62,686 nt of DNA, filler included, from Dirinaria sp. TL-2023a (GCA_051941275.1; 2 parts of 2 records of this genome joined end to end with filler, not necessarily neighbours in it); one strand, 5' to 3'; shown: positions 6,972-31,402, numbered from the whole stretch's first letter. The notes: generated by a model not told the origin, from the letters alone. Numbers and translations: made by a program.

Positions 6972-8785
6972 GTTGAACACAATCCGCGCTCGATTTCGAG
7001 CAGCTGTCAACGGTTCCTATATCCCAAGATCCTAGGATCCGGTCCTTCAACAGAATATACTTATCGATGTCCAAAGAGTTCTGTAGGCGCCGACGCCGGT
7101 CGAACACGATTTTCAGCGAATAGTGCATGGAAGGAGTGATTGACAGATATATGCACCGAATTCATTCCCATTGAGACCCTAAGTAACTCATTTTTTCCTA
7201 GTTGGCTTTTCAACTCGAGCTGAATCGTCTTGTTGATGTTCTTCTCATCGTAACTTGATCCGAAACATTTTCCATTAGTCTTGAAGCGCATGTTGAGACT
7301 TCAATATCATGCCCTGATCGCAATTGATCAGCCCACTGTACCGCTACATGTAGAGTCCACACACTCGATCGAGTCGAGCTTCATTTTCAGTCAGGGTCAG
7401 ACCTTAACAAGTCAATTCTTCACAAACGCATTCTTCCGAATATCTTTTGGCAAGAGCAACAGAACCCTCCAGGAAAGCGCGAAGCCTCAATCAACTCAAA
7501 CCATCTTTGGCTCGATCTTGGACTCCCAAGAGCCGCACGTGAAGGAAAGACAACATGTGTCTTTTAAACTCTCGCATGAGTGCCAGGATATCACTATACC
7601 ATGGAGTTTGGGATGCTCATGATCGTGGAAGCATTCGTAGAAGCGTCCAAAAAATCCCCGCGATAGATTTCGTACATCTTTGATCCAGACCTATGCTTTG
7701 GTTTTTGGGTATCTAAGTTGTGTGTACATGAAAGCTCCCTCGAAAAGTTAGATAATCAGAAGACATGCTCAGGAATTTGTGCAGAAGTTCATCCGGTCAT
7801 TTCACAATCTCAACGCCATTTCATTGAGGCGAATTTTTCTTAGCAGTTCGAATCCACACAGACGCGAGCATGCTACAATGGAGGCAACGCTCTCCGTCCT
7901 AATAAAATATTTTTGGCTCCGAGATCCAAGTCAGAAAGATACTGAACAACACGACGACTTCAAGCACGCCATGGATGTTTTCTCAACCTCGTCGTAATCA
8001 GGGTTGAGTCAGGGTTTAATTCTACTGATATTAGTTGTATGGAGTAGGTTAGATGAGTCTGGTACTTCCTGTCACTGCTTATTTCTCTTACAATGCTAAG
8101 AACTAAGCTACCATTCCGAGATTGCCATCCAATGCATGTATTGCAACAGCTGCAATCGCATCCCGAGTCACGTTTCTCGATTTTTACTCGGACCCTAAAG
8201 TTGAGTCAGACACAGTACCTTAGAGTGCCTAGTCCATCGGCTACTTGGGCAACGCACGAATCATCCAACATTTTCCACACCCATGCTTAGAGCTGCATCT
8301 ATTACTATCATGGGTATGGATCCATATAACCAGCTCCCGGGGGTCGAATGTGAGATAATGAAGCGCAGATGGTCTTGGATGCGAGGCTTATGAACATTCC
8401 CCAATGAGATTCCAAATATTCAGGTGCGGGGCAGAAGAGCAAAAGAGCTGGCGGCTGTTGTGAAATGCGGAAACTTAGTGCTGGTACGTTGCGAGTTACA
8501 ATAGAGTCGCCAATCAGGCTGAATGCTATCGGCCTCTTGCCACAGCAGAAGGCGGGAAATTACACAATACACATTAATTTTGCTCCTACCTTACAACGTT
8601 TCTCTCCCTGCTTGGCTCACATCGCCGGGTCTATATGAACAGGAAAGTAGGCGCTAGAAGAGTATGTACGCTGAAACGCATAATCTAACAGCCCGCCCGT
8701 TTCCATTCCCCTTTCAGAGCTGTACGTCACTCCCAACAGCCAGCCAACGAGCCGCGACCCAGTCCTATTGCTTCCGCTTTATGCT

Positions 8786-9475
8786 CTACCAGATCGGCTG
8801 TCGAGCAGAGAAGACCAGCATCGAGCCGACGACCTGACTCTCGACGTGTGAATAGTTCTTATTCAGAACCTCCACAAACATCTCTTCCGTGTCCTCCAGA
8901 TTGCCCATGCGACCTTTGCGGTTGATGCGACGCAACGCCCACTTCGACCAGCTCGTTTGGTTCCCCGACTTGGGTCCAAGGACCGTACATCCGAAGAGCA
9001 CACCGTCGGGCTTCAGATGATGCTTCAGCATGCTGAAAACCTGGCATTTGCGCTCCTGGGGCGGAGGCAAGCAGTGTAGCAAGTACATGATGGAGATGGA
9101 GTCGAAGGTGCCCAAAGACTCTGGGAGAGGCTCCAGGATATCGTGCTGTAGAACATCGAGGTCTGGGCGGCCGAGGCGCTCCTTTGTCTTCTCGAGACAG
9201 TTGGCGTTCAGGTCGCAGAGGGTGATGGATGCGTCCGAAGCGGGATGGGAGTTCTGCAGGAACCAGCCGGTCCCAACGCCGATATCGAGGTGGTTCCTGC
9301 GGATGTGGGAGCGAAAGAAGGGGAGCGTGACTCGGGCGGTGGAACAGCGCCAGAAGATGGAGCTCATGATCTTCAGGATGAAGAAGTCGTAGAATACCAG
9401 GAGCACTCTACTATAGACGGCGGCGCCTGGCACACCGGCCTTCTCGCTCAGGACGGGTGCCGTACTTTTGGCCAT
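8786..9475 (-). CDS. Class I SAM-dependent methyltransferase, YbcY/VrtF-like family (229 aa)
   Basis: Intronless ORF, first ATG at 9475. Motifs GAAVYS..LL.FYD, WRCST..LPFF, NHLDIGVGTG (SAM motif I), LCDLN, FDSISIMYLLHCLP, LKPDGVLFGCTVLG and VVGSMLVF. Confidence 0.85.
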   Translation of the reverse strand: MAKSTAPVLSEKAGVPGAAVYSRVLLVFYDFFILKIMSSIFWRCSTARVTLPFFRSHIRRNHLDIGVGTGWFLQNSHPASDASITLCDLNANCLEKTKERLGRPDLDVLQHDILEPLPESLGTFDSISIMYLLHCLPPPQERKCQVFSMLKHHLKPDGVLFGCTVLGPKSGNQTSWSKWALRRINRKGRMGNLEDTEEMFVEVLNKNYSHVESQVVGSMLVFSARQPIW

Positions 9476-11417
9476 GGTTCCACACGACAAGGGTATCTGC
9501 TTTGGAGAAAGCGGTGCAAGATTCCCAGGGAATTAAGAGATTGCGGGCTGGGAGAGAGACAAGTACCAAGTGTGGCCTGATCAGCTGTGGCTGTTCTTAA
9601 AGAGATCCAATAAAGTGAAGGGGAAGGGGGAGGGGATTATTCTCATCTTTGAGATCAGGGCTACTCGCGTAATCGGATCCAGGCTGAGGTCCCAAAGACC
9701 AAAGTCTCTTCGACTTGTGCTTGTGCTCGGAGATCCCGAGCGAAGGCGCTCGAGAGCATTCGGGAAGTCTCAGCCCAGGTGAGGCAATGTTGCATGGCGG
9801 ATGGATGAGATAGATAATGAGTCAAGGGCTCAGTGTATGACGATTGGAACGCCAGAGCAACGGTAGTGGAGTTTGTTGGGTTGAAATATGCACTGTATTT
9901 TCTCCTTATCGAATACTAGCGCTTTCATAGTCGCCGGGTTCTCAGGTCCGAGTATGTACGAAGAACGGAGGTGCTTAAGCGACGCCCGAGCAGTAGGGCC
10001 TGTTTAGCACGGGTTCAGGTAACTAAGGTAGGAGGACAGTACATGGTGTAGGTAACTTGGTGTAGGTAAGGCAGTCCAGCAGTCCAGCTGGAAGTTAACG
10101 GGGGGCTTCGGTACCTTACGAGTAGATACTTGGTAAGGTACTGTACGCTGTGTACGCTGTATGTATCAGTCAATACCGTTCTATGCAAGCCAGGTACCGA
10201 TTCAGGCAGTGCATGGACGACAGAATTCGCCGTCTTGGCGGCAGAGGAGTTACATACCTTAGGGCGAGCATAGGGTTCCTTGGCCGCGCTGTCGGGCCGA
10301 AGCGCAATCTCGTAAAGCTTGTCTGCACCTCTTTCCGAGTGGTAGGAGCAGCCCGTACTGTAAAGTAACCGACGTACAACACATTACAGCTGTATTTTAC
10401 AACGCCTGATGCGCCTGATGCATTACGGCTGAACAAGCTTTACGGCCGCTTTAGGCTGAAGCGGATCCTCCTCGACCGAGCAACGGCGCATAAACATCCC
10501 ATTCTGTAGTGTGAGAGATCCCAGCCCCCCAGCCCCTGCAGGATATTGGTAAGTTACCGAAAAACCACTAGAGACGAAAAGGTCCGATTAGACAAGGATC
10601 GCCTAGCGATGTCTGACATTGAAGAAAATGACACTCCAATCGCTCGTCAGGTCAACATGAGACAATACATCACCATCTATTGTATGTACTGTACGGGTAC
10701 ACCTGAGACGGACGTAATCGACTTTGAGTTCCTCCGTGAGACCAGAGAAGTCCGGCGAACTAGAGCGGCACGATTACAGCCACATTGACTAAAATGAAAG
10801 ATACGTCGGAGTCGAAGTTCTCGCAATTGCCAACTCAGAGACGGCTGAGCCTAAGCGCAAAAAAAGGGGTCATGCTGTTCCGGAATCGTCGGTCATCTAG
10901 TGCTTGACACAATCAAGTCCGCAGTCGCTTCGCTTTCCTGAGAACGGCAACAGGCTCTCGAGGGAGCCAAGAAGCTATACTAGTTCATTGACGTGGATCA
11001 GATGGTCAGATCAGAATTCGTTGGACGAAAAGGAGAAGTGGATAGAAAAGGGGTTGGTTTGGGTGTAGGGTTTGGAGTACTGAATGTCAGTCCTCTTTAC
11101 TCAACCCGTCAAAGGTAGCCTCAGTGCTGGAATGGTATGGATTCGAATGTGAAAACGCATGCAATATATTACTATGATCTATATATGATTGTAGATAGTT
11201 TAGAGATTACATATGGTGCCACGGTGAAGATATGGAAAGTAGAGAACAAAAAATTATCTATCAAAAGGGACAATCTTTCTCGGAGACAAATGCATTGAAA
11301 GTACGCCGTACACGACGAGACCATCTACCGCTGCTCCACTTTGCAGTCCAACCCCCTCTACCATAATTGTACCGTAAGTGCTCCAGGCCTTGACCACGCC
11401 TTCTACACCGCTGCGCT

Positions 11418-14400
11418 CTATGTCGCCGCACTCTTTTGACACTTGTCAACCAATCGGGCCGCGAAGTCCACGATGGGGATGCTGGCCAGCACATCAAATA
11501 CAGTGACCGCCATCTTCGTCTCTTTGAGCAACCAGTTCACAATTTCGATCGCCACTAGCGAGTCGACGCCGTACGTGTGCAAGGGGCGCGCTGTATCGAT
11601 CTCGGAAGGTGCGGTCTGCAACGATTTCGCAACACGGAGCGCTAGCGCTGCGGTTAGGTTCTGGCTTGCTGTGGCGGCATCAGTGGCCGCCACTGCTGGG
11701 AAGTCTTTGAGCGGGTTTGCTGAGGAGGAAGACCCATCGGCCGCCTCAGAGGCCCCGGCAGAGAGACCGGTCAAGGCGAGGTGGGAGAAGCGAGGATCAG
11801 AGAAGTAGTAGGGAGTCCGGATACCTGCGGCTTGAGCGGCGCCGCCAGTGGCTAGACCCGTGATGATCTGGGGCGGTATGACGGGGCTATCTTTGGCGGA
11901 TGAATTCCCGGTCTCGGCGGTAATGATTTTCTCAATCAATAAATGAAGCTCTTTCTCGCGCACGCCGAAGGGTTTTTCCCACTCTTTGAAATAGTCAGTT
12001 GAGCCTTGTTCAGCGAGAACGCCGACGTCTCGCATGATACCCAGATCGATGCTGACAGCTTTGAGACCACGTGAGACACGGTAGTGCGCAAGAGCGTCCT
12101 CGTAGGTGCCACCGGCGGCGTAATTGCTCTGAGTGCGATGTCCGAAGATGCCGACGAAGGAACTCAAGAAGATGCAAAAGTCTAGCTCCTGGGGCATCAG
12201 CGAATGCAGATTCCAGCTCCCTTGAACTTTTGGCTGCAACGATTCTGTCCATTGCTTGTGAGACATTCTCTCAAAAAGTGTATCGCGCAGAGCCATGGCA
12301 CATTGGAAAACGCCTTTGCACGGAGGCATATTTGCTGCATAATCTTTGAAAGTCTTTGCGAGGTCTTTCATGTGAACGATATCGCAGGAATAGACCCTGA
12401 TCTTGACACCCAACGCCTCCAGCTCACGAACGAGCGTTTGAGCCTCGCGGGATTTGGCGCCAGATCTGGAGATGAAACATAGGTAGCGAGCTCCAAGCCG
12501 AACGAGCAGATGAGCTAAACTACGACCTATGCCTCCAAGACCCCCTACGAGTAGGTAGGAAGCATCAGGGTTCAATGCGACGGAGGTTTTAGGGCGGCGC
12601 AGAACTGGTACGGCGCCACTTCCAGCCCAAGAGATGGCAATCTTTCCCTGGTGCTTTCCCGTCTGCATCAGACGGAAGGCGTTCTCAATCTCGGATACAG
12701 GATAGACGTTGATGGGCGAAACAGGACGAGTCACACCCTGGCGCACATAATCGAAAGCACCGTTCATGATCTTCGCCAACAGAAGAGGGTTTCCGACCAT
12801 GACGTGCTTTAGGTTTATGAATGTGAAACTTGCGTCTTGGATGAACGGGCGCATCTCGAGGCTGCTGTTGCTCAAAATATCTTTGAGCCCAATTTCGACG
12901 AAACTGCCGAATGGAGCGACGCAGCGCCAGGACTCTTGCAGAGCCTCACCCGACAATGAATTAAGAACACAGTCGACGCCTCGTCCATGAGTCATTCTCA
13001 GCACGCCTTTTGCAAAGCTCAGATCTCGGGAGTTGAAAATATGATCGTCGGGTATGCCATAGAGATCTTGAATCAATTTTTTCTTCTCAGGCGAGCCCAC
13101 TGTCGCGAATATCTCCGCCTGGTGATGTTTGGCTATCTGGATAGCCGCTTGACCCACGCCCCCAGCAGCTGCGTGTATCAGAACTGTCTGCTTTGGCTGC
13201 AGGCGAGCAATATGGACAAGGGCATAGAACGCTGTACAGTGAACCAATGGCAAAGTTGCTGCTGCCTCGAAGGAAAGGCCATCTGGAATATTTTGGCAAA
13301 AAGATGCTTTGTTACGGAAGACGGTTGCGTGAGCACCATGCCCGAGTGTACAAACTTTATCTCCAGGTTTGAAGGCGGAGACTTGTTTTCCAGCGTGCGT
13401 GATGACACCACTTGCTTCGAAGCCCAGCAAATTGTCTGGAATTTGCCCCATAGCGACCATAACATCGCGAAAACTAGACCGCATGAGCATTCTCTGAACC
13501 TCTGGATTTAGGTTGGGGTTACTTACTTCAGGCCCGTAGCCTTCACGTCTATGACTACTTCGTCGTCTCTAATCTGCCCTTGCGCATCATCTGGTTCAAG
13601 GCATAATGAATCCAACATACCCTGCGCTTTAACAGCTAGTTTGTGGGGACCTTGAGCTTGCTCGAGAGGTATAGATTCGACTCTTTCCTTCTCTTCCGCT
13701 CTCGTGCGTGCCATCTCCTCACTCATAAAACCGTCTTCCACCACCCTGCACCTATGTAAGATTCCGTCTTTTTCCAAGAATTCGAATTCAGGTGTGGAAG
13801 AGGCAATGATCTTCGAAATAAGAGGCGCCACTCTCTCAGGGGATTGAATAGATTCTGGCTGTATTGAAAGCGTGCGAAAGCATTTTGAAGGAATCTCGTT
13901 GCGTATGCTCCGAGCCATGCCCGTAGATAACGCTGCCGCGGGTCTGCCCGAGGATGTTACCCATAGGAGGTCTGATGTGTGCCCGACAATCTGTTTCAAG
14001 TTGAGAAAGTCTTGTTCGGCGATACTTTCAAGCATTGGTGCGTCGAGTTCTATGAGAGAAACGCAATCCTTGCCCGAAAACCCGTCGAAATTCGAGCCCC
14101 ATTGTAGTCGTTTTGGCTTGTATGAGCTTTGTTCAAGCTCCGTGGCTAGCTGATCAGCAACGGCTCTTGCGGCGTCACTTGGGCGGCTGGCCTCCAGAAT
14201 AGCAACTTCAGGCGCTGCGCATACACCATTGGCATGAGGCTTTTCGTTGAGACTACTGACAGATACACTCAGTTGCTCATGTCGACTATCCTCGGAACCC
14301 GTTATCTGAAATAGTGGAGTGAATCCATGCTGAATTAGAGTGTCTTTCAAATCATTACCGTCATTGTACCCTTTAGTAGTGCTTTTCTCCCTTGGCAATG

Positions 14401-17400
14401 TTAGAGATTTCCTATTCGTAAGGTATAGAAAGGATTTTATTGCGTTCTTACCTTGACGTTTGGAGACACCGTAACATCAAAGAGGTACCTAATCCTCGAT
14501 TGGCGATGCCTACAACAAACAGCTTGCCTCCCGGCTTAAGGAGTTTCCTAGCATTTATCAGCCTTTTACCCAGGTCTTGAGTTTCTCCAATGGTAGCGAT
14601 CATCAGGACGTCAAAAGTAGCCGGTTCCAGGCCCTGACTTGTGGGGTCTTTGTTCACTGAGATGGTACCAAACTCGACAAGACCTTTCAGATGCTCCGAG
14701 CGCTCCTCGGCCTCCTTGGATGCTGCATCGGTTGGGCTTGCGTATACATAATGAAGCAATGGAACACGATCCTGGGAGTCATTGGGAGCATCAGAGACAA
14801 TCAGCGACGCCGCTGCTCCGTCTGCGATCCCCAAATCCAATATGGATATCGCCGGGTTCTCATGGGCTAGTAATCCTATATACTTGAGAATGTTAGTCGG
14901 GCTGGAAAGCATTCAGTCTGAGTGGTTGAGTACCTTTGCGATCTTGGTAAGTGATTCCTCTTGTCCTGCGACATCGTTGAGCCATCGATCGAGAATACCA
15001 TCCTTGCGCAAAAATTTCTCCGCGTCGTTTTGTCCATGGAGAATCTGCCCAAGATTTTCGCCAATTCGACAGAGTGCCTCGTTGTCAGCGCCGCCTTTAA
15101 GATCCTGTAGGAGGCTTTCGGCCTCTGTCCAGTTTACATGGGTCCAATCCTCGTCTGTCCGCGGCTGGGGGGGATCGTCAAGTTTGGCACGGTGCTGCTC
15201 CTGCATCCACACATGAAAGTCTTGAAGTTGCTTGGTTGGGACGCGCTCGAACGGAACTTCTTCCAATGCACGCTGCATGAAAAGGTAAGCCAACTTTTCG
15301 CGCTTTGTGAATGGCTCGACGGATTGAACTTTCCGAGACGCCGGAAGCGTTGTGTCAATGACTTTGCGCGTTTGGTCGGGCGTAAGGAAGTCTATGGCTG
15401 GTTTCCAGACCATTTTGGTGAAGAAAGTTTGTTCTGATGCTTCAGTGTCATCTGAGCTACCGGTACTTGCACCAGCGATTGCTGAGCAACGAAAACCCTT
15501 GACAGTCACGGTTGGGCTGTCCAGATCCTTATCCAGCATCACCAAGTCCGCCATGAGCTCGCGAAATCCATGCTCAGACGCTTCACAGAAGCCTTCCAAT
15601 CTCGAACCAGCCACGTAGGGGATTTCCGCTGATACGAATACTTCATCGATTGAGGTAGGAACCATTGTTTGCTCCAAACGACCAGTCTTATCCTTGTACG
15701 CAGCAAAAGCTGCATGGAAGATTGCATCCAAGTTCGCAGGGTGAATTACGTGAGGTCTGCTTATCGATGCTTGAGGGTCAGGGTCGAACATTTCCAGGGT
15801 AAAGCAACTTTTACCCTGACCTCTGCACACCCGTGTCAGATTTCGAAATGTAGAGCCATAGTTCAAACCGACAGACGCGAGTTCCGTGTAGAACGATTTT
15901 ATATCTTCGGTGGTATGGCAAACCCCCTTGATCCGATGGAATTCATCCCTGGTAATTCTGTGCTCCAGGTTTCTCTCCATAGATATACTACAATCTTTGC
16001 CGATCTCGTATTCGATGAGCAGCAAGCCATGACAGTTTTGCCTCAAGTCTTCTCCATCTGGACAACTCGAAATTGAGAACTCCATCCATGTGGAAGAATT
16101 TTCTCGCGTGCCTGTCCGGTGAGGCCTAAGCTGGAGTATGCATTCTAGATCCGCAGTTTCACTCATCACCGCAGGTGCAACTATCTGCACCTCTCTTAAC
16201 TTGAATCCTTTGATGACTTGCTCTTTTGTCGCGATTTGCCTTGCACCTTCTATAGCCATGGCTAGATAACCTGCAGCTGGATACAAGTTGGACGTCTGAA
16301 TTACGTGATCACGTATCCATGGTTGCTCGGATATGCGAAAAACTGCTCTCCAAGTGTACTCTGACTGATTCATTTTTGGCACTCGAACTCCCAGCAAGCT
16401 CACTCGAGGCTGTGCACGGAATCGATATTCTTTGGATATGCGAGATTCAGCCCAGAATGTACGAGAGTGATTCCAGGAATACGGTGGTAAATCGACTAAG
16501 GGCTGCGGAGTGGACTTGCAGCTAAGATCTGAGGAGTTATTGACCTGACTGAGATCGACAGGGACATTCTGGGAAGCAAGGAATCCTGCAGCTTCCAGAG
16601 CCGTTTCGGCGGCATTGCGGCCGCGCGTGAGAACTGATTGATAATTAATACCCGTAACACCATGCTTCTTCGCTGTCTGATTGAATGCGCCTTGCATCGC
16701 GGAGTGCGGCCCGAGTTCTAGCAAGATGTCGACAGAGTTGTCCGTACTTCGGCTGCCATCATCTTGGAGCGGCCGCATGAGATCATAGATTGCATCGTAG
16801 AAAAGTACAGGCGAGACGAGATTTCTGACCCAGTAAACAGATCCAAGCTCACTCGGCTCCACAAAGGATCCAGTGACAGCAGAGTACATTTTGCGAGAAC
16901 CGCAATCTGTGTTAACGCTCATTTCGCTCAAAGATTCGAGGTATGGCATCGAAACCATGTTCATGTGTGCGCTGTGGTAAGCCGTCTCCACCTTTAGCTT
17001 CCTTGCGAAAACTTCTTTCTCTTTCAGTGTGGCTTGCAGTTCGTCAATTGCAGAAGCATCGCCAGATAGTGTCATACTCGAAGGAGAGTTGACACAGGCG
17101 ACGACTACCTCACCCTGTGAAACATCGTCTATCCAACCCTGCGCTTGACTTTCCGAAGATCCGACCGCAAGCATAGCTCCTTGCACAGAAGGTGCAAGCG
17201 ACTTCATGCGCGAAGATAAAGAGCCTCTGTAGTAAGCGGCCTGCAAAGCATCTCCTCTGCTCAAGGCACCCAGACAGTATGCTGCAGCAATTTCGCCGCT
17301 GGAATGTCCTACTACGGCTGAAGGAGTTATGTTCCAGCTTGCGAGCAGATCGACCAAAGCGATTTGGAGAACCGTGCACAATGGTTGAGCAAATTCAGGG

Positions 17401-19557
17401 CTGTTGATTCTTGACTCTGCATCTTCACGGCGAATTTCTTCGGCCGCTGACCATGTGCATCCCAGATTACTTTGAAGAAAGCGACCAGATTCCTCAATAC
17501 TTCGGCGGAACACCGGATACTGGTTGAGCTCCTCCCCCATCCTTGCCCATTGAGCACCTTGACCTGTGAAGATGAATCCAACCCGATTCTTGGCAGATGA
17601 ACGAAAGACGGGCGTAACAGATTCTTTACTCTGTAATGTAGACAATAATTCATTGGCAGAGGAAGCAACCGCAAAAGTTCTCCACATCAGCTGGGAGCGC
17701 CTTTCAGCCAAAGTAAAGGCTAAATCGCTGAGCGCCTCGTCTTCCATCAAGGCAGCTTCATGTGCTTCCAGATATCCGCAAAGGGTCTGCTTTTGACGGC
17801 CAAGGCCCTCCTGATCGTAAGCGCTCAGCAGGAACAACCTGGAATTCTTGTTCTCAACCTCACTCGTCACACCGTTTTCGAGATGACTTTGCATAAGCGG
17901 TTTATGAGATCCATTGACATAATTGGTGATTCCGTTTATATGGTTGTTAATCGAACCGTTGACGTGGTTAGTTTGGGGGGGTTTTGTTCGGTGAGCTCCT
18001 CGGAGTTTCTTCTGCGCAAGATAATGAAATGCATCGTCAAGGACTATATGCGCGTTTGTACCACCATAACCGAAACCTTGTACCTAGAAATCAAAGTATT
18101 AGTATTGCTAGCCCACGCGTGGTTGATGACTCACACTAATGCGCCGTAGACTGTTTCCCGGAAATTTCGTCAACTTGGTGGGAACCGAAACTTTCCATTT
18201 CTCAAAGGGGATTTGTGGATTTGGATTATTGAATTTGATGTTTGGGGGGATCAACCCTTGCTCAAGAATGTATATGGCTTTGATAACGCCTGCAAGTCCA
18301 GCTGTTGCTTCGAGATGACCAATCTGCTGAATCTTAGGATCAACCCGCTTCAATAAAGGGTGTGACGTACGTTTGCTTTCACAGATCCTACCATCAAAGA
18401 CTGTCCGTGTGATTTGGATGGCACCAAGGTTGTTGCAATGCCTTCCATTTCCAAGGGGTCACCCGCCTTCGTTCCCGTGCCCTGTACACTGTTAGCCGTT
18501 TCGCGTAGGAGATAAACGGGGATCAACCAACGTGAGCTTCGACATAACGAGTGTTCTCGAAGTCAAGTCCCGCTTGCATATATGTAGAGCGAATCAGATT
18601 AGCTTGAGCCACAGCACTTGGTACCGTAAGCCCCTTGGTTTTCCCATCATGGTTTACCCCTGTACCCCGTATGATTGCCCGAATGGGATCTCCGTCCCGG
18701 ATAGCTTGATCGACTCGCTTCAATATGACGGCGGCGAAGCCTTCACCTCGGCCATAGCCATCGCCTTTTGCGTCGAAGCTCTTGCATGTCCCATCTTGAG
18801 CCAGAAATTGCATGTTCGACAGCATCATAAACATGTCTGGGTTGAGCAAAAGATTTGCGCCGCCCACAACAGACATACTAGAGTCTCCCGCGCGAATACC
18901 CTGACATGCTTGGTGAAGCGCCACCAAGCTCGAAGAGCAGGCAGTTCCCAGAGTAAAGCTGGCGCCCAGGAGGTTGTAGAACCATGAGATACGGTTTGAA
19001 ATAGTTTCCTGCCCAGCGCCACTGAGGATGTGAAGAGGGGCAAAATCTGGGTCTCGAAGGAGCATTTCCCGATAGTCAGTTGTGAAATTCCCGACAAAGC
19101 AGGAAGTATCCGTGCCCGTAATCTTGTCCAGCGATAAACCAGCATTTTCGAAAGCTTCATAGACAATTTCTAACATGATCCTTGATTGAGGGTCCATGGC
19201 GCGTGCTTCGCTCTCGCTGATGCTGAAAAAATTGGCATCGAACGTGGCAATGTCCTGACGCACAAAGTGGCCGCCTCTCGCAGAACTCGTGTTGAGTTCC
19301 GACTTGGAACTGCTATGAAAAGCATCCGCATTCCAACGAGGCGACTCTGAATAGGCAGCTTGAACCACAGTCAGTATGTGAATGTTCTGTGTGATCGTTG
19401 CATGGCATGCTTAGGGTAAGATTGAAAAATGATGCATACATCGTCCGTTGCATAGGAGCTCCCAGAACCGTTCTCCATTGTCTGCGTCGCCAGGAAATCT
19501 ACAGGCAAGTCCAATGACCGCCACCGAGTGCTCGTCGTCCAGGCTTGTTTTGGTCAT
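11418..19557 (-). CDS. Highly reducing iterative type I polyketide synthase, KS-AT-DH-pseudoMT-ER-KR-ACP (about 2581 aa, 8 exons)
   Basis: ATG at 19557 ([23 protein letters not shown]). GT-AG introns at 19359-19439, 18482-18531, 18324-18370, 18084-18134, 14883-14933, 14391-14451 and 13474-13526 give one open frame. [84 protein letters not shown]. Confidence 0.95.
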
Positions 19558-20896
19558 TTTGAGGCTATGGGGGGTAACATAACGTAGCGAAGGTCGAACG
19601 TTCCAGTTGATGGAAATATCGATATCACCAACAGCGGGTGAAGCAGTCCACTATTCGAGGGAAGACGCCAAAGGTAAGGGGAGAAAAGGAAACATTCAAG
19701 TTTGCCAACAACGCTGGATCTGGCACTCACTCCACTGCTAGTTTTCAGCTACGGTCTATCCACCTGACAATCCCGATATCAATCCTGTTGTGGGTGCGGC
19801 ATTGCTAGCATGATTGGCTTTCTTACAATCGCGAGCCTCATGCACATCATCATCATGACGATTTCCATCTGGGCTGCTGGGATCGGTTCCTTCCATAATG
19901 CAATGGTCTGAGAACACGCGCAGCGAAAATGATATGCAGCCATGGGTGGAGCTCGGACGCGGTGCTACCTATTGGTTGGGTCAGAGCGCAGCGCCCTATA
20001 CAGAACGGGAGCGTGTCTCCAGGTCCGACTTGCGAGAACGCCTTGCATCTGTATTCTATGTGTTGAGCCACGGTTCACTCGGCAATTTTCTGATGGCAAG
20101 TTCTTCTCATGTTTGCGTGCAGCCGACATCCATCCCGATCAGGCAAGCGCACCCTTAGCGCGGGGTTGTTCGCACTTCCTCAGGGTTTCGCGCTAAATTC
20201 GGGGTAAGATTACCCGTACGGAAACCATGTATTGAAAGCCCGTTCGTATTATTGTATCTTACTGTACTTTAATCCTATAGACACACAGAATCGACCTCCT
20301 CCGCCTCACGTACAGTAGACGCGACCTCAACAAAACACTATCAGATCGCGATTCGCATCTATCGCGTGAGAATAACTTCGTCTCGGCAATGTCCGTGTCC
20401 ACTGACGCCATCACCTCACCCCTTCCCCCAATGGATACGAGCACCCACACTGCCATCTGGCTTCGGGAACTTCGAACCGCACCCGGGATTTCTGCATGCA
20501 GAACATGGACATTTCGATGTACCTCGAGCATGTATTCCAAATGTTGGACGTGCTACTCGTCGGCCTTCTTGGGCTTTTCGGCGCACCCGATAGCGCATAG
20601 ACTTCTGAGCGAGACCGATCGTAGAGGGGGCAGCCCAACCCGTGGCCGCAGTCATGCGAGATCTTGTCTGAAAAGTGATCACAACTTAATTAAGTTATCT
20701 GCCTTAGCCGATCCACTGAGTATCGGATAACAAGGTTGGCAATTGTTCCGATCTTCGATGAAACCTGCATTCTTCGAAGCTGAGTCTTTTTAAATCCAGT
20801 CACAGCTTTCCTTTGTGACTTGCTCTGTATCGTCAAAGGGCCCCTCTCCTCTCTCCCCTTCCCTCTCCCTTCCCTTCTTGGTTCTCTTCACATACA
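19558..20896. promoter_or_regulatory. Shared divergent promoter region of the HR-PKS and NR-PKS
   Basis: 1.34-kb spacer between two outward-facing ATGs, with a pyrimidine-rich tract at about 20841-20890 before the NR-PKS ATG and CGG-N5-CCG-like inverted repeats at 20462-20476 and 20578-20590. Confidence 0.6.
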
Positions 20897-23800
20897 ATGC
20901 ATCCAACGCGCGTCCTACTATTTGGCGATCAGACCGTTGACAAGCTTGGGACCATTCGTGAATTGACCCAGTTTTCGAAAAGTTCACCAACACTCCGAAG
21001 GTTCCTACGAGAAAGTGCAGATGTCGTTCAAATCGAGGCGGCCAAACTGGGCCCACTCGAACAGAAGGCCTTCGCCTTCGATGACCTTCTCACGATGGCG
21101 GAGGCCAATACGAAGGAAGCCTTTCCTGACGAACTAGTCGCGACTCCTTTGATGTGTATAGCGCGGTTAGGGGTGCTGCTACTGTAATTTCCTCGTTTAA
21201 TGCTCGTGGATCTTTGCTGATGGCTGGAAAAGCTACGCCGAAAAGGAGCCTGGGGTCTTGATGCCTATTGACACTGGAATGCATATCATTGGTTTCTGTA
21301 CAGGCCTCATCCCCGCAGCTGCCGCATTGGTTGCAACAGACGTCGCAGGACTTCTAAAATACGGATTGGAAATGGTTGCCATTTCGGTCCGTCTAGGATA
21401 TGAGATTTCCGCACGCTCCAAAAGAGTAGAGGAGAATCCAGGATGCTGGGCATATTCCATCGTCGGGGCCACGGCCGCAAGCTCCCAAGCATTTCTTGAC
21501 ACATTTCACGAAAGCAATGTACGTGACCTGACATTCGGACATCTTAAAGTGTACTAAAGTAATTAGCGGATTCCTCCCTATCGACAAGCTTATGTAGCTG
21601 TAATCTCTAGAACTTGGGTGAGTAAAACTCGCTATCTCTTTCTGTTGCGATATAGTAACACGCTTGCACTCTTCGTAGCGTTGGGAGAGATCCGTGGCCT
21701 GCGTTCTATTATTGAATGATTTTTTTTGTTTTCAACAGAGCACAACAATTTTGCAGGGGGCTTGTTATCTGCTGGTAGTAAAAAGTTGCGCTGGAATACG
21801 GTTGCCCACAACTTGTATAATCTGTCTCGTTTCCTATCAGCCGTTTTTGAAGTAAAAATTGCTAACTCCTAGATTACAAGACAACTATTTTTGGGCCCCC
21901 ATCAACTCTCCAAAAGCTTTGGGAAGAATGTCCCGAGCTCGGTCTAGCGCCAAAACTCAAACTCGCAGCCGCTGGAGCAGTTCATGCATCTCAATTGCCC
22001 CCTTTGGACCCCGAAAAAATAATCGGAGATTCTAAGCTTTTGGACATAGCTATACAACCTGATTCCTCGATTGTTTCTTCGGGCACTAGCGAACATTATT
22101 CAGCGTCAGACTTGCGTGGCCTGCTTCACGAAATGCTCGGTGATATTGGAGAGAACACATTACATCTGACTGAAACTGTTCAAAAAGCTGTGTCTGATCT
22201 ACCAAGGTCCGAAGACGTGGAGCTCTATGTGGTCGGACCCACGGCGCATACAACGCTCGTGCAAGATGCAATGCAAAAGGTGGGAAAGACTGTGGAGGTA
22301 TTCCGGCAGCCAGACCCGCCAACTACAACCCGTAGCACTCGGGGAGGTTCGGACCTTGTCGCAATCGTAGGCATGTCTGGAAGGTTTCCTGGTGGTGGTG
22401 AGAGCCTACAGCTTTTTTGGAACATGCTTCTGCAAGGTCAAGAGACGCATGAGAAGGTAGGCGCATTCCAGTTTGAGTCGACTTATAGCTGACACAGACG
22501 CTGCGTCTTCTCTAGGTTCCGAAATCTAGGTTCAACATTCAAACACACTTTGACAAAGATGGTTCTGGTAGAAATACCACGTCGGTTCCGTACGGCTGTT
22601 TCCTACAAAAGCCAGGGCTATTCGACTCACGCATGTTCAATGTTTCACCCCGAGAGGCTGGGCATATGGATCCTATACAAAGGTTGCTGTTGATGACTAC
22701 ATATGAAGCACTGGAAATGTCGGGATACAATTTGAATGGCAGTCAATCAACAGAGACCAACCGGATCTCAACCTATATTGGCCAGTGCACAGATGACTGG
22801 TGCGATAACAATGAGAGTCAGGGCGTCGATGTTTACCACATACCCGGTGTAGCACGTGCGTTTCATCCGGGTCGGATAAATCACCACTTCAAATGGGAAG
22901 GTGGAGCTTACAGCTTGGATTGTGCATGTGCTTCAAGCTCCACAGCTGTTGCTTCCGCCTGTGCAGCATTATTGTCTCGCGAATGCGACACAGCGATTGC
23001 TGGCGGTGGGAACCTCTTGAGTGCGCCTCTTTGGTTTGCTGGGCTCAGCCGTGGCGGATTCCTTTCCAAGACTGGAGGTTGTAAGACATTCCGGGATGAC
23101 GCGGATGGTTACTGCAGGGGTGAAGGAGTTGGTGTTGTTGTAATGAAGCGCCTCGAGGATGCACTCGCCGAGAACGATAATGTACTGGCTGTTATTAATG
23201 GCTTTGCCAGAACTCATTCTGGGGAGACGCCTTCGATCACCCAGCCCACTGCTGAGTCCCAGCGCAAAATATACCAAAAGGTGTTCCAGAGATCTGGGGT
23301 AGATCCTCAAGACATAGGCTATGTGGAAATGCATGGCACAGGGACACAGGCTGGAGACCCAATTGAGGTACAGTCGGTGGCAGATATTATCTGCGCGGGT
23401 CGCAGGAAAGACAATCCACTATTTGTTGGAGCTGTGAAAGCAAACATGGGCCACGGGGAAGCGGTTAGTACTCACCTGTCTATTGAAAGCTCCGGTATTG
23501 ACCGCATGACATTGCAGGCTGCAGGCATCACGTCCTTAATTAAAACAATCTTGATGCTGCGAGAGCGCCGCATCCCTCCTCAGCCTGGAATGCCTTTCAA
23601 ATTAAACCACAAATTCCCACCGCTGGATAAAATGTACATGAAAATTCCCGCAGAAAGTCGATCCTTTGATCCGCGCTCCAAGGATGGCAAAAGAAGAATT
23701 TTCTTGAACAACTTCGATGCCGCGGTAAGTCCTCTCTCGGGAACTGCAACTGGGGTCTGTATTAACAATTTGGTAGGGAGGTAACACTGCATTAATCATC

Positions 23801-26800
23801 GAGGAGTTCGTGCATCAAAGAGACAGAAAAAACGATCCACGTTCATCCCACATTGTGACCTGTTCAGGCCATACCTCTTTTTCACTTCTCGAGAACAAGC
23901 AGAGACTATTACAGTATGTGAAGTCCAATCCAGGTACAAAGATACATGACCTGGCGTATACGACAACAGCACGGAAAATGCATCATGCTTTTCGAAGTTC
24001 GTTCGCCGTACGCACAACTGAAGAATTTGCAAACAACCTAAACGCAGACATTGCGAAGGCTCAGTCAACCAAAGCTGTTAGCCATGAAAGCTATAGCTCA
24101 ATCGTTTGGGCATTCACTGGGCAAGGATCCTTCTACCGCGGTATGGGTAAACAGCTTTTCCAAACCTGCGGCAGGTTCCGCGAGAGTATCCTTTCGTACC
24201 AGCGGATCTGTGACCTGCAGGGTTTGCCGTATGTTGTAGACCTGATTTCAAACCCCGAAGACACGCAGGTAAACGATGAGACCATGGTCCAGACGCAGCT
24301 GGCAATAGTATTTCTCGAACTTGCGCTTGCAGGTCTGTGGAGGTCATGGGGAGTGAAGCCCAATCTCCTTATTGGACACAGTCTTGGCGAGTACTCTGCC
24401 CTTTGCGTTTCTGGAGTTCTGTCAGTCACTGACACCCTATACCTGGTGGGAAAACGTGCGTCACTTCTCCAAGATCGATGCACGCCAGGCACTCATGCTA
24501 TGCTCGCCGTTGACTGGTCGTCTGAAAACCTTGGCCAGTTCATCGAGGCCGAGCATCTGTCTTCGTGCAAGATCTCGTGCAAAAACTCACCGAATCAAAC
24601 GGTCGCGAGCGGCACCATTAACGATTTGAAACAGCTCGATAGTCGACTGAAAGCCCAAGGAGCGAAGACTAAAATGCTGCAAGTCCCGTACGGGTTCCAT
24701 TCTTCGCAGGTAGAACCTATACTCGAAGAATTCGAAGCGTGTGCCAAGGGTCTTCACTTCGCTCAGCCGACTATCCCGGTAGTCTCGACACTTACGACTG
24801 TGGTGGTGAATACTGTGGGACAATTCCAGCCAAATTACCTTGCTAGGCAAGCAAGAGAGCCAGTGGATTTCTTGGGTGCTCTTCAGGCATGCAAGAAAAA
24901 CGGTCTTGTCAACGATAAAACTGTATGGGTCGATTTTGGTCCGGATCCGATGTGCCTCGGAATGATACGTTCGAGCCTTGGGATACCATCCACGAATCTG
25001 TTCGCAACCGTCAAGTCGACCGAGGAGAACTGGAAAACAACATCTGCCTCCCTTTCATCTGCCTATTTGGTCAAAGTACCTATTGACTGGAAAGCATATC
25101 ATCAAGAATATGTGAATTCTCTCACCTTCCTGGAACTACCTGCTTATGCATTCGATCTGAAGGAATATTGGTCTCCCTACAACCAAGACATGACGGGCAC
25201 GGGCACAGGCACTGTTAAGGCTGCTATGGAGAAGTCTGATCCAGTGCCGGTCTCGGCAGCTCCGCTAACAACATGTCTTCAATACCTCGTCAATGAGACC
25301 TTTACCGAAAAGGCGACATCCGCTACCTTCGTAACTTATACATCCGAGCCAAGCCTTTACGAAATAATTCAGGGCCATGTGGTCAATGGGGTTGCACTTT
25401 GTCCTGCCAGTGTCTTCTGCGACATGGCTTACACCGCCGCGGAATACTTGTTTGGGAAGGCTAATCCTAACAAGGCCGCGTTAATTGATATGTCTCTCCA
25501 TGGCCTGAATATTACCCACCCTATTGTGATCGATTCGCCTGATCAGCCAAAGAAAATCGAAGTGACCGCTACCAAGCTTGACAATGATTGGTCAGTGAGT
25601 ATCACGTTTAGATCAGGGGACTCCTCTCAGAACCAGAACGGCGGCTGCCAAGTTCGCTTTGATGCGAAAAACTCTTGGAAGAGAGAAGTTGCCAGATCCC
25701 TCCACTTGGTTAAGAAAAGGATGGAAGCAGTCGTTAAAAGCTCTACCTCTGGAGACGGGCATAGGTTACTCAAGCCTATCGTTTACAAACTTTTTTCGGA
25801 CCTCGTGAACTATGCCGAGAGCTATCAAGGCCTTGATGAGGTTTTCCTTGATAACGGAGGTCGTGAAGCTGTTGGACGGGTCAAGCTGAGGCGTCATTTA
25901 GAAAGTGGCCGATTCACGCAGAACCCTTACTGGCTCGACAGTATCGTGCACTTGGCAGGATTCATACTGAACGGAGATGTGACTAAGGCAATCGATATAG
26001 CTTTCATCGCCACAGGGTTTGAAGCGCTATACGCCGTCGAAGAGCTCAGCGAGGAGCACCAATATACCAGCTATGTTTGCATGCAAGAAGGGGAAAAGAA
26101 AGATGAGCTTCTTGGGGATGTTTACGTTTTCAGGGGAGAGACTCTTGTTGCTTTGTGCGCTGGCCTTTGCTTCCACAAGATGCTCAAGAGGACGTTATCT
26201 GCCATCATGGGTAGAACTCCTGGCCCTCAACCAAAAGCGGCAGCTTTGGGTCCACCAGCGCAAGTATCTCACAAAAACATCTCTCAAGCCTTCCCGTCTG
26301 TGGCACCTGCCACGTCAAGCGGCTCGTTGACGCTCGCGGATGGGCATACTCCACAAGATACCTCATCTTCTACAGGTTCGGCCAAAAACAAAATTCAGGA
26401 CACAGCGGCCCTTCTGTTAGGTATCATAGCTTCGGAATCTGGAGTCGATATTGATGAACTACAGCCAGCGACTTCCTTTTCCGATCTGGGAGTGGATTCG
26501 CTGATGACTATCACAATCCTTTCGGCAGCCAAAAGCCAATTGGACATGGATATTCCAGCGTCATTTTTCACTGACCATCCGACAGTGAAGGATCTCCAAG
26601 AGGAGCTTAGTGATTCCATGGATGCTGACGACGCTCCTGAGGTGACCGAGATTCCTGAACCTGGGCTAACTACGGAGGAAAGCTCAACGGACACCCCTAC
26701 CTTGACTCCGGTTGATACCGCTCCGGACGATGTGTCTCCAGATGTCGATATCGCGCAAAATCTCACCAACAGTGACACGAAAGTTGAAGACTTACCCACC

Positions 26801-27772
26801 CGTGAGACAAAACCTTCAGTCGATGCAAACCAACCTCCGCGAGGCAAAGTAGTCCTACTGCAGGGTCGTGCATCATCAAAAGAAACACCGGTGTACTTGA
26901 TGACCGACGGTGCGGGGTCTGCAACGGCTTATATATACTTGCCGCCCCTTCCCGGTGGAAGGCGGCTTTACACTATTGAGTCGCCATACCTTCCGAACCC
27001 GACTGAGTGGCGCTGCAGTCTGGAGGAGTATTGTAGCTATTACGTTGCCACTCTCCAAGCAAGCCAGCCGCATGGCCCTTACATACTAGGGGGCTGGTCC
27101 GCCGGCTCGGTTTTTGCCTTTGAGACCTGTCGCCAGTTGATCCATGAGAAGGGCGAGCAAATCAAGTGCCTGTTCATGATTGATATGCGAGTACCGCGGC
27201 CCATGCCGGATGCGCTTGAGCCCACGCATGAGCTTATCGAACAGGCAGGTCTGGTGACGGGGATCAAACGGTCGGGACAAACAATGAACGAGATTTCCAT
27301 GAAGGTGAAGGAGCATTTGGTCAGTACTGTCAAGGCTCTCACGCGCTTCCAGCCTCAACCGATTGATCCTGCGCGCCGTCCTGGGAGGTCATTCATGGTG
27401 TGGGCTAGACAGGGACTGGGACAGGAGAAAATGTCACGATTCAAGGGAGACTTACAAAAGGAAGTGGACGCCATCGAGGGTAATGTCATGGAGGACCCGA
27501 ACACAGGGCTGAAAGGTTGGTTCTTCGCAAAGCGGACTGCGTTCGGACCGAACGGCTGGGATGAGCTGGTCGGTGATGTCGAGTGTCATGTCATGGAAGC
27601 CGATCACTTTTCCATGGTCACACCACCGGACGTAAGTCTCCTATCTATTGACATTCGTGCGTTCCGCGCTCAAATGACTAATTGTGTCTTCCAGGTCAAG
27701 GAATTAGGAAGGCTTCTCCGAGAGGCCGTTGAGAAGTCTGAAGCTGCGTGGAGCGAAGCCCATCCCTGCTGA
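20897..27772 (+). CDS. Non-reducing iterative polyketide synthase, SAT-KS-AT-PT-ACP-TE (about 2095 aa, 8 exons), orsellinate/resorcylate (group I-like) type
   Basis: Introns at 21184-21232, 21519-21566, 21618-21880, 22457-22515, 23464-23517, 23725-23776 and 27632-27694 give one open frame. SAT: LLFGDQT, GFCTG, GAVHA. KS: DCACASS, EMHGTGT, GHGEA. AT: GHSLGE, YGFHS. PT: GHVVNGVALCP, WLDSIVH. A single ACP: LGVDSLM. TE: GWSAG, DHFSM. Confidence 0.95.
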
Positions 27773-28836
27773 AACTGCGTAAGGCAGTTTGAAGCTGGAT
27801 TACAAGGTTGAGTCAGGGGATCATGTTCTGCATACTACGCTATGCAGTAAATCAAGATTGGAATAATTGCAGGATCGGAGTTGACTGTGCGTTTGATTTA
27901 AAAGTAATAGATTTTCATGTATGCTGTAATGTATAGGTGGTGGCTGGGGCTTAATATAATGTAGATGAATGGTTTCATACATGTATCTCTACTGCATCCT
28001 ACATATGTTTAGACTCTCACGTGTATGTACAGTGGAACCCAAGAGGAAGGCTTGTAGAGTATCCCAAGCGGACAAGCCAGAATCTATCTACCGAAAATGC
28101 TCCATATTCGCCTCATGTTGTCGCCTTCAATCGGTATCAGCTCCTTCATCAACTTTCCCATGAGACATGGTCTCGAGCCCAAATTCAGCTCCTACTTTCC
28201 TAGAGAGACAGCGGAGACTGAGCGCGTAATGTAATCTCGAATAGCGAAGGAGCATCCCTCATATTTTATGAGCTCGGAAAGTTGTGCCTATGAGCCTGCT
28301 ACCGAATGCACAGCATCCTGAATCCAACACTGTCCCCCAAGATCATAAGTAGATGACAAGTTCTAGCTTTTCAGCGACTCATATGACGCAGTCTTTTCTT
28401 CTGATCAATTACTTCTCAAGCCAAGAGCAATGCCCATTTTGGTGGTTCATTACATTACAGAAGTATCGCAAATGTTCGTCTTCAACATACACCATTTGCG
28501 ATCCAAAGGTAGTGCAATTTTTCTGCCCGTTCCCAAACCAACAGAAGTGCCAAGTTCCATTAGCTTGTCCAAGTACTACGATTATTCGTCGTCAGAATAC
28601 ACTGTCAGAATACACGATGTAACGGTTCTAAAATAGTGCATTTCTCCAGGAGAAGATCGGTCTTCCGTATTTCATGTCTGATTTGAAAGCACAAGCTCAT
28701 TATCGTGACCTTGGTCCCCGTGTCATCGAAAAATATCGTAAAGAGATTGCGTAAAAGATTTCTGTGAGCAATGGCTGAGATATCAGACGTAAACGGCTGA
28801 GCTCGGTTCGGGGGTTCCTGGAGTCATTCGGAAATT

Positions 28837-30497: not shown

Positions 30498-31402
30498 GTA
30501 ATCAGATTGCCGAAAGTTTGAAAGAAAAGGGATCTACAGCGGTTGCGAGATCTGCTGCGAAGAGTACATTTCGAGCATGTACCTTCTTAAAAGTGCCCCA
30601 TCACTTTTGCGCAACGTTCCACCTATGATGGTATTTATCAGCTCTGGCATCGGAGATTTGGCGTGTGCTTCATACGTGCGTTCGTGCGTCGCAGGTCTGC
30701 TGAAGTAAAAAAAATATGAGTGGCCGGTAGTCCACTGCCGGCCATCCACGTGCCACCGCCAGCGCTTCAGCGTGAAAAGTACTTTCCAGAAGGTGAGTCG
30801 AGTTTAGGAGACAGTCTTCTCCTATCATCGCTAATGGAGACTTAGATAGCACGGTGTGATATATTGGCACCGAAGCTGTCATGCCAGCGCCTGGTTCGCT
30901 TTTAAATTAGAGCTTTAAGCCACCCCTTATTGTCAGTGCAGTATCCTCTCAGAAGACTTCTAGCATACATTTTCTGAGCTTATCGAGGCTAAAGATTCCG
31001 ATTTCAGTTGGAAAGAACATGTCCCTGGACCGCCCCTCAAAACGACCAGAGATGGACGGGATAATCTCTCATGCGACAGAACCAGACCAGATCCACATTT
31101 TCCATTCTTCTGCCAATGACATTATTATTTCCAATATGCCTCGCGCACCCAATCACCAATCAGACAAAGCAGCAGAGTTTGCTCCAACACTCCTACTCGG
31201 TCTGTATCCAGGCACGCTCTATCATTAAGTCTACGCAGGAATACAGGGGCCCAGCTAAACAGGCGAGCTGAGGCCAATACGACAGGGACACTTAATGAAT
31301 GTCAATGAATCAGGTTGCAATGAAGCTGCTCTCGTATCATCTGTATTACGGTCGCCCTACGCTCCTAATCTCCTGCCTCGGATCGTCTCCAACACACAAT
31401 TG

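Follow-up and report, generated by a model that had tools for sequence, protein, structure and literature searches.

The three-gene locus

The window, that is, the whole stretch of DNA analysed (62,686 bases from Dirinaria sp. TL-2023a, GCA_051941275.1), consists of two contigs, 1-31402 (contig A) and 31503-62686, joined by an artificial spacer at 31403-31502 (44 N, TTAATTAATTAA and 44 N). Three genes within the first contig are the subject of this work: a polyketide synthase of the highly reducing type (HR-PKS), one of the non-reducing type (NR-PKS) and an S-adenosylmethionine (SAM)-dependent methyltransferase. It is proposed that they form a transcribed cluster of a lichen-forming ascomycete in which a collaborating HR/NR-PKS pair and a tailoring methyltransferase probably generate a methylated alkyl-resorcylate product. 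The genes and the region between the two synthases are as follows:

19557-11418, minus strand: HR-PKS gene, 2581 aa, 7 introns; ATG at 19557, stop at 11418-11420
20897-27772, plus strand: NR-PKS gene, 2095 aa, 7 introns; stop at 27770-27772
9475-8786, minus strand: methyltransferase gene, intronless, 229 aa; coding 9475-8789, stop 8788-8786
19558-20896, no strand: divergent intergenic region, 1339 bp between the PKS starts; RNA cover low or absent

The start-to-start gap of the head-to-head synthase genes measures 1339 bp, and the methyltransferase starts 1942 bp past the HR-PKS stop. An earlier account of this DNA made from its letters only (the sequence-only reading) had described two full-length PKS genes head to head across 1.34 kb, with open spliced frames and intact KS, AT and ACP motifs, and one intact methyltransferase about 1.9 kb past the HR-PKS stop. 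All of this holds: the genes lie at the positions that it gave, the spliced frames run without stops for 2581 and 2095 aa, all 14 splice joints being present in RNA contigs, the KS, AT and ACP motifs are confirmed in both synthases by Pfam and by motif alignments, and the SAM motifs of the methyltransferase are intact.

Full-length relatives, used as tblastn queries, and a search for GT-AG introns gave the spliced HR-PKS model, whose seven introns measure 47-81 nt. Pfam applied to the exon pieces (minus strand, 11418-19410) recognises KS, AT, DH, an sdrA-like pseudo-ketoreductase fold, ER, KR and a C-terminal acyl carrier protein (ACP); the domain order is KS-AT-DH-degenerate CMeT-ER-KR-ACP. 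In the KS domain the motifs TACSSS, EAHGTGT and NIGH are intact in the alignment. The protein ends in its ACP, and neither Pfam nor motif alignment finds a release domain after it. The parts of the gene are:

19557-19440, 19358-18532, 18481-18371, 18323-18135, 18083-14934, 14882-14452, 14390-13527, 13473-11418, minus strand: HR-PKS exons
16650-17576, minus strand: AT domain (Pfam Acyl_transf_1; GHSSG, YHSAHM)
15471-16397, minus strand: DH domain (Pfam PKS_DH_N and PS-DH; catalytic His in RDHVIQ)
14300-15011, minus strand: CMeT-like region (residues about 1440-1640; interrupted by two introns)
12633-13466, minus strand: ER domain (Pfam ADH_N and ADH_zinc_N; HAAAGGVGQ intact)
12027-12563, minus strand: KR domain (Pfam KR, 7e-62; GGLGGIGRS and SS...SNYAA)
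11430-11669, minus strand: ACP, C-terminal (Pfam ACP_SdgA_C and PP-binding; GVDSL)

The CMeT-like stretch of about 200 aa lies between DH and ER, and stmA of Aspergillus ustus and the benzenediol-lactone HR-PKSs largely lack it. Its SAM motif I is degenerate, reading LDLGIADGA in place of E/DxGxGxG, the acidic residue usual after strand 2 (post-I) is missing across the whole clade of relatives described below, and the core exon at 14448-14912 gives no Pfam methyltransferase family match. The corresponding regions of Icmadophila, Cirrosporium and Lecanora helva give weak Pfam Methyltransf matches of 30-44 bits. From these motifs the domain is probably inactive, and the starter made by the HR-PKS is therefore probably unbranched.

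The NR-PKS has the domain order SAT-KS-AT-PT-ACP-TE (Pfam, plus strand, 20819-27772), with the following parts:

20897-21183, 21233-21518, 21567-21617, 21881-22456, 22516-23463, 23518-23724, 23777-27631, 27695-27772, plus strand: NR-PKS exons
20897-22000, plus strand: SAT domain (Pfam SAT; active-site GFCTG aligned with relatives; interrupted by three introns)
22360-23700, plus strand: KS domain (Pfam; DCACASSS, HGTGT, GHGEAAAG)
24104-24892, plus strand: AT domain (Pfam; GHSLG)
25349-26176, plus strand: PT domain (Pfam PKS_DH_N and PS-DH; His in QGHVVNG, Asp in YWLDSIVH)
26411-26596, plus strand: single ACP (one PP-binding stretch; GVDSLM)
26969-27740, plus strand: TE domain (Pfam Thioesterase; GWSAG, conserved IDMRVP and ADHFS; split by the intron 27632-27694)

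A gene model with five introns was rejected, as it held two internal stops that are removed by the 48-nt intron 21519-21566. The intron of 63 nt at 27632-27694, near the end of the TE, is in frame and stop-free and was revealed by RNA only; gene calls based on open reading frames (ORFs) therefore read through it, and its removal gives a C-terminus like that of annotated relatives. Three homologs derived from prokaryote-style ORF calls (P0001-P0003) diverge in sequence exactly past this intron point. The intron at 21618-21880 in the SAT region measures 263 nt against 47-81 nt for the other 13; its joints are seen in three RNA runs, and no ORF or Pfam match was seen inside it.

Splicing and transcription

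The RNA data are contigs from four RNA-seq runs (X1-X4) of a single lichen-metagenome sample. The contigs are 95-99% like the window, so they stem from a closely related strain or species, whose genome need not be that of the window. All 14 introns, seven in each synthase gene, are spliced in these contigs: the joint of the NR-PKS intron 23464-23517 is present in run X2 only, that of the intron 27632-27694 in all four runs, and the remaining joints in three or four. One RNA contig of 7049 nt covers 11773-19137 fully spliced. All three genes are covered, the intronless methyltransferase by RNA over 8400-10011, and cover is absent over 10383-11704 and nearly absent over 19637-20958, which makes carry-over of genomic DNA an unlikely source of the methyltransferase cover. 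The cluster is transcribed in lichen material.

The same contigs allow a comparison with the RNA strain. Twenty-five differences fall in the methyltransferase coding sequence (among 40 listed for that end of the stretch, with 463 more), 23 of them at third codon positions, and together they change one amino acid, S56C; small indels are confined to the leader upstream of the gene, at 9552-9626. The methyltransferase is under purifying selection. The degenerate CMeT region gives some room for the thought that the cluster is silent or decaying, a relic. This is extremely unlikely: both reading frames stay open to their ends (2581 and 2095 aa), none of the catalytic motifs checked is damaged, spliced RNA exists, and the methyltransferase is held under purifying selection.

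Relatives and conservation of the trio

The NR-PKS search scored 7998 candidates, 2854 of them with E <= 0.001, and the HR-PKS search 8000 candidates, 5878 of them with E <= 0.001; the best 120 of each were taken, and what is said below about matches of the two synthases refers to these sets. The top NR-PKS matches are 84%, 65% and 62% identical, and those from lichen fungi include Lecanora helva (53-58%; about 55-58% for P0009) and Xylographa, Alectoria and Pseudevernia (45-49%). The first NR-PKS match named after a characterised pathway is stmB from A. ustus, at rank 117, with 39% identity on the searched exon and about 42% for the whole protein. The HR-PKS matches run in the order 84%, Icmadophila 68%, Psora 54%, Cirrosporium 50%, Xylographa and L. 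helva; these are followed by stmA (47%), Metarhizium and Talaromyces proteins, and ZEA2-like enzymes and RADS1. Among the best 120 HR-PKS and 120 NR-PKS matches no protein with a characterised name exceeds 51% identity.

Over its full length the HR-PKS is 86.7% identical to P0121 and 70.9% to the enzyme of Icmadophila ericetorum (P0122). P0121 is one uninterrupted ORF of 2556 aa on a Logan contig of 8645 nt. This contig is probably a transcript assembly, since the window gene requires removal of seven introns; if so, the gene would be expressed in a second relative, a more distant one.

All three genes recur together in L. helva, where the methyltransferase ACLMJK_002847 (71%), the HR-PKS ACLMJK_002849 (54%) and the NR-PKS ACLMJK_002850 (55%) lie close together, the HR-PKS and NR-PKS on adjacent locus tags and the methyltransferase two tags from the former and three from the latter. 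Five further methyltransferase/NR-PKS pairs were looked up, and in all five each of the two proteins is seen on a single contig, of exactly the same length for both (58817, 1600462, 32202, 27479 and 45019). Across the six pairs the methyltransferase identities (77, 73, 71, 66, 58 and 52%) stand in the same order as those of the NR-PKS (65, 62, 53, 53, 50 and 46%). HR-PKS and NR-PKS partners on equal-sized contigs occur in L. helva, Cirrosporium, Xylographa trunciseda, Stipitochalara, A. cavernicola and A. ustus.

This recurrence beside the PKS pair indicates that the methyltransferase is part of the cluster unit. The sequence-only reading had grouped it with the pair, and the grouping gains from both the recurrence in relatives and the 25 nucleotide differences that yield one residue change. 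The methyltransferase could instead be a mere neighbour without a role on the polyketide: its family is a generic class I one, mostly bacterial and without assigned function, it stands 1.9 kb from the HR-PKS, and it has its own, separately transcribed leader. We regard this as quite unlikely, as it would leave unexplained why the gene accompanies the synthases in L. helva and the NR-PKS in five of five further pairs, as well as a methyltransferase divergence that tracks that of the NR-PKS, and about 5 kb without long ORFs lie on the far side of the gene.

In Xylographa trunciseda the NR-PKS MMC11_007031 (P0051) and the HR-PKS MMC11_007034 (P0125) have two locus tags between them; because these two synthases stand apart, not every member of the clade has them head to head. 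Nor is the number of ACPs constant: alignment counts a single ACP for the window, for L. helva and for stmB, against two for Cirrosporium novae-zelandiae (P0013), so that it varies within the clade.

The sequence-only reading had proposed a KS phylogeny, and a tree of the KS-AT region was made with 36 rows, namely 35 chosen from the best 120 matches (the named ones and a few representatives) and the window. The window HR-PKS falls in a starred 10-row clade of its own with lichen fungi and Cirrosporium, which joins, with SH-aLRT 93, an unresolved fork together with the stmA clade, Stipitochalara and a 15-row clade; it thus sits in a supported super-clade with stmA, RADS1 and ZEA2-like enzymes. 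The 15-row clade holds the Metarhizium and Talaromyces proteins and the RADS1 and ZEA2-like enzymes, and within the reach of this tree, which has HR-PKS references only, the window HR-PKS lies outside the clade with RADS1 and ZEA2-like. The NR-PKS tree has 13 rows (12 chosen full-length matches and the window) and stmB as its sole functional landmark; it groups the window and L. helva with Alectoria, then Cirrosporium and Xylographa, then stmB and A. cavernicola. The HR-PKS and NR-PKS trees match in topology.

Metagenome contigs were also searched, with the ER-KR-ACP exon as query, and gave 36 loci, none of which encodes a relative of the methyltransferase (tblastn, E <= 1e-10). The best loci reach 60% and 58% on one segment, with full-length identities of 48% or less. 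In one locus from a soil or plant-associated metagenome (L034, 6047-12039) an HR-PKS C-terminus, 51% identical on the KR, lies beside an NR-PKS-like gene on the opposite strand; it is the only one of the 36 with an adjoining NR-PKS-like gene (35-41%), and it is an unrelated HR/NR pair.

The methyltransferase

The ORF at 8786-9532 matches only Methyltransf_25/12/23/11 in Pfam (E <= 0.001), and the protein is a class I SAM-dependent methyltransferase with intact motif I (DIGVGTG) and post-I (DLN). In front of it lies one more transcribed feature, in which no ORF with a Pfam match was found:

9476-10011, minus strand: transcribed leader upstream of the methyltransferase, 5' untranslated region or promoter-proximal transcript (RNA contigs 9047-10011)

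Its homologs number 393 (the window's own protein being P0241), the closest of which have 228-235 aa. Bacterial relatives from Pseudomonas and others (P0264-P0360) are class I methyltransferases of 218 aa with 42-46% identity, and in the ESM Atlas the matches are confined to generic 'Methyltransferase type 12' clusters, for the most part bacterial; an old bacterium-to-fungus transfer of the gene is possible. The sequence-only reading had called the enzyme VrtF-type. A Lachnellula protein with 47% identity does bear the database name 'vrtF', but the label fits no further than that name.

Five residues, H62, H134, C135, N192 and D195, are invariant in 45 aligned sequences, the pair H134-C135 within the LLHCLP motif, which is invariant in the family. 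The AlphaFold (AF2) model has a pLDDT of 89.8, and in a Foldseek comparison with the PDB it finds CysG and BelI first (TM 0.61-0.68, 17-20% identity), followed at lower rank by SgvM, NodS, JHAMT, phosphoethanolamine methyltransferases and DnrK. CysG and BelI are described, in passages of PMC11408123, as Ca2+-dependent carboxyl O-methyltransferases with a His-His-Asp site. In a profile alignment, which ends before the Asp, H134-C135 falls on their His-His pair; they thus have His-His where the enzyme of the window has His-Cys, and they act on an alkylmalate and not on an aromatic acid. The model suggests that the methyltransferase may be metal-dependent and carboxyl-esterifying; phenol O-methylation is equally likely.

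Comparison with known pathways

The sequence-only reading had assigned the pair to an alkyl-resorcylate, lactone or depside type, and the nearest pathway-named proteins agree with this, stmA and stmB at 42-51% first and RADS1, ZEA2-like and hmp8-like enzymes after them. As in the window, stmA and stmB of A. ustus combine an HR-PKS with a single-ACP NR-PKS of the order SAT-KS-AT-PT-ACP-TE, apparently on one contig. The window HR-PKS is 51% identical to stmA over the KS-AT-DH half and 43% over the ER-KR-ACP half. It differs in being about 200 aa longer, by the CMeT-like insert; no glycosyltransferase was seen in the window, which has a methyltransferase instead, and in both trees the stm clade branches separately. 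This comparison draws on UniProt names and a review passage about the compound, as no paper on the stm cluster was found; stromemycin is given there as a C-glycosidic depside (PMC6965366).

The Ova pathway is close in logic. As PMC12134893 puts it in describing Okorafor et al. 2021, Ma_OvaA/OvaB/OvaC (HR-PKS, NR-PKS and thioesterase) yield olivetolic and sphaerophorolcarboxylic acids, the HR-PKS providing an alkyl starter that the NR-PKS turns into a 2,4-dihydroxy-6-alkylbenzoyl thioester. With the 1056-aa exon of the window, the HR-PKSs of Metarhizium and Talaromyces share 46-47% identity. In the Ova pathway, known here by description, the thioesterase is discrete, whereas in the window the TE is fused to the NR-PKS; an Ova-type cluster with a TE-less NR-PKS and a separate thioesterase gene was considered and set aside, given the fused TE and the lack of a hydrolase Pfam match among the flanking ORFs of contig A. 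Among other relevant systems, AquA, a single-ACP enzyme of the order SAT-KS-AT-PT-ACP-TE, is reported to form alkylresorcylate depsides (in a passage of PMC11514314), and DepD/DepH are an HR/NR pair that forms a depside (in a passage of PMC10501868).

Several features of the window are those of collaborating pairs: an HR-PKS without a release domain, the SAT cysteine (GXCXG) in the NR-PKS, and adjacent genes whose pairing is kept in relatives. The two synthases might nonetheless work independently, an acetyl-primed NR-PKS giving an orsellinate or lecanorate type of product and the HR-PKS a separate reduced polyketide. Self-priming with acetyl-CoA has precedent among NR-PKSs of this general type: in yeast, Ma_OvaB gave orsellinic acid (passage of PMC12134893), and DepH on its own gave lecanoric acid (passage of PMC10501868). 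Such independence is very unlikely here, where the HR-PKS could not release a product by a domain of its own, the HR/NR pairing is kept across the clade and the two trees match.

The benzenediol-lactone systems RADS1/RADS2, Hpm8/Hpm3 and ZEA2/ZEA1 share with the window the domain orders and a head-to-head or adjacent HR/NR pair. The pair could accordingly be a benzenediol-lactone synthase, in which a distal hydroxyl is left on the chain by the HR-PKS, the TE closes a macrolactone, and the ring is O-methylated by the methyltransferase, as in the lasiodiplodin or hypothemycin pathways. The domain orders equal those of the RADS, Hpm and ZEA-type pairs, RADS1, ZEA2-like and hmp8-like HR-PKSs are 41-50% identical to the HR-PKS of the window, and O-methyltransferases are listed in a passage of PMC12721105 among known benzenediol-lactone tailoring enzymes. 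Nevertheless, we consider a lactone synthase unlikely: the window HR-PKS falls in a separate clade, outside the starred one with RADS1 and ZEA2-like, at 41-45% identity, and the best 120 NR-PKS matches include stmB and no protein named for a benzenediol lactone. We also know of no macrolactones among lichen thallus compounds.

Within lichens, the PKS16-type model for orcinol depsides invokes a two-ACP NR-PKS, a P450 and a starter from an unlinked HexA/B fatty acid synthase (FAS), as set out in passages of Singh et al. 2021 (PMC8533459). The window resembles this model in being a candidate source of orcinol depsides with alkyl side chains and differs in its one ACP, its linked HR-PKS and the lack of a P450 on contig A; with one PP-binding stretch and one GVDSL, its NR-PKS is not of the two-ACP lichen depside synthase type (PKS16/PKS23). 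The same source reports that the PKS16 enzyme proposed for olivetoric acid gave lecanoric acid only in yeast, even with hexanoyl-CoA. Passages of Kim et al. 2025 (PMC13062703) liken the lichen biosynthetic gene cluster (BGC) families PKS27, PKS28 and PKS29 to the Ova cluster; compared by description, the cluster of the window is probably of this sort.

Proposed biosynthesis

Published pathways show what such pairs do, and we propose on that ground the following route, which we consider probable. The HR-PKS would build a saturated, probably unbranched acyl chain of short or medium length on its own ACP; the SAT of the NR-PKS, with its Cys in GFCTG, would accept this chain as starter, and the KS and AT would extend it with malonyl units. 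Cyclisation by the PT is predicted to give an alkylresorcylyl (6-alkyl-2,4-dihydroxybenzoyl) thioester bound to the single ACP, from which the fused TE would release the product as an acid, depside or lactone, and the 229-aa methyltransferase would methylate an oxygen of the product, phenol or carboxyl. The release mode is not readable from sequence. By analogy with the stmB pathway, release as a homodimeric depside is our tentative preference; a free acid is possible but less probable, and a macrolactone somewhat less probable still.

A number of points weigh against this route or limit it. No orthologous cluster appears in the metagenome collection, where none of the 36 loci has a methyltransferase relative and full-length identity is 48% or less. 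The RNA comes from a strain or species 95-99% similar to the window and from one sample, and its contigs give no expression levels. The CMeT-like region might still function, given the weak Pfam matches of its relatives and a GxGxG loop in Cirrosporium, and the starter could then be branched. The methyltransferase gives no match to PF00891 (Methyltransf_2) and so lies outside the usual polyketide O-methyltransferase family; its own family is mostly bacterial and unannotated, and its closest solved folds, at 15-21% identity only, include C- and N-methyltransferases besides carboxyl O-methyltransferases. Additional cluster genes past 31402 may lie out of view beyond the contig end. The experimentally confirmed lichen depside synthases are described in a passage of PMC8533459 as two-ACP enzymes, whereas the NR-PKS of the window has one. 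Finally, acyl transfer, chain length, cyclisation register and release mode are all predictions from homology, whereas the gene structures, intact motifs, splicing and transcription, trio conservation and purifying selection on the methyltransferase are direct observations.

A more specific version of the proposed route can be put forward as a speculation that we consider improbable as a whole. Here this cassette, and not PKS16 with the HexA/B FAS, would make the O-methylated orcinol depsides with alkyl side chains found in lichens (perlatolic-acid type): the linked HR-PKS would set the side-chain length, the single-ACP NR-PKS would form the alkylresorcylate and its TE join two units, and the bacterial-type, possibly metal-dependent methyltransferase would add the O-methyl group or groups. 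The leads towards it are the yeast result for the PKS16 enzyme and a chemotype lead that covers one or two species only: L. helva is a producer of 2'-O-methylperlatolic acid, and Icmadophila ericetorum, the source of the closest named HR-PKS, contains perlatolic acid.

Surroundings of the cluster

The sequence-only reading had seen a minimal gene set. Flanking ORFs of contig A indeed give no Pfam match to a P450, halogenase, MFS transporter or transcription factor, but the claim reaches only as far as contig A does, which stops 3.6 kb beyond the NR-PKS, for which reason the right cluster border is open. Flanking ORFs likewise give no hydrolase Pfam match, and there is no discrete hydrolase ORF on contig A. 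ORFs of at least about 100 aa in 1-8785, 9476-11417 and 27773-31402 match no Pfam family at E <= 1 except DUF3112 and two chance-level matches. The DUF3112 membrane-protein gene, at about 479-2324, is the sole other Pfam-recognisable gene on contig A. An ORF of 251 aa without a Pfam family lies at 3086-3841 on the methyltransferase side of the cluster, and about 5 kb of ORF-poor sequence of lower GC content (45-47%) separate these two from the methyltransferase.

The intergenic region 19558-20896 is presumably a shared bidirectional promoter of both PKS genes. A motif scan, made without comparison to chance expectation, finds several CGG-N-CCG sites in it, and the sole 10-mer that it shares with the methyltransferase leader is of low complexity. 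Genes beyond 31502 are not neighbours of the cluster, as they lie on the separate contig; Pfam recognises there an M19 dipeptidase, a cyclin, ECM29, a Zn2Cys6 factor, DAGAT and RhoGEF/BAR.

Significance

The source of the C3-C7 alkyl side chains in lichen depsides and depsidones is an open question, for which a model with an unlinked FAS stands against the HR/NR-PKS clusters of the 2025 paper. In passages of that paper (Kim et al. 2025, PMC13062703), the BGCs for C5-alkylresorcylic depsidones are described as unidentified in lichens, and Ova-like HR/NR BGCs, found in many lichen genomes (PKS27-29), are hypothesised to be the source of C5-alkylresorcylic units. In the literature searched we found neither a functional study of a lichen HR/NR-PKS pair nor a characterised lichen HR/NR cluster. 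The sequence-only reading did not recognise the gene set as a characterised cluster, and in this it stands, with no characterised-name match above 51%; the idea behind it, however, is in print already, in a passage of the same paper (PMC13062703). The cluster is uncharacterised but of a known enzyme kind: an expressed candidate for the open question and not a new type of system. If its product were an ordinary alkylresorcylate or lactone, it would be one more uncharacterised fungal PKS cluster. Its synthases are paired here with a methyltransferase family without assigned function, and the full intron map is confirmed by RNA, so that heterologous expression constructs without introns can be drawn up directly. 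For the question of the lichen side chains, the cluster provides a case that is compact, intact, expressed in lichen material and kept among relatives.

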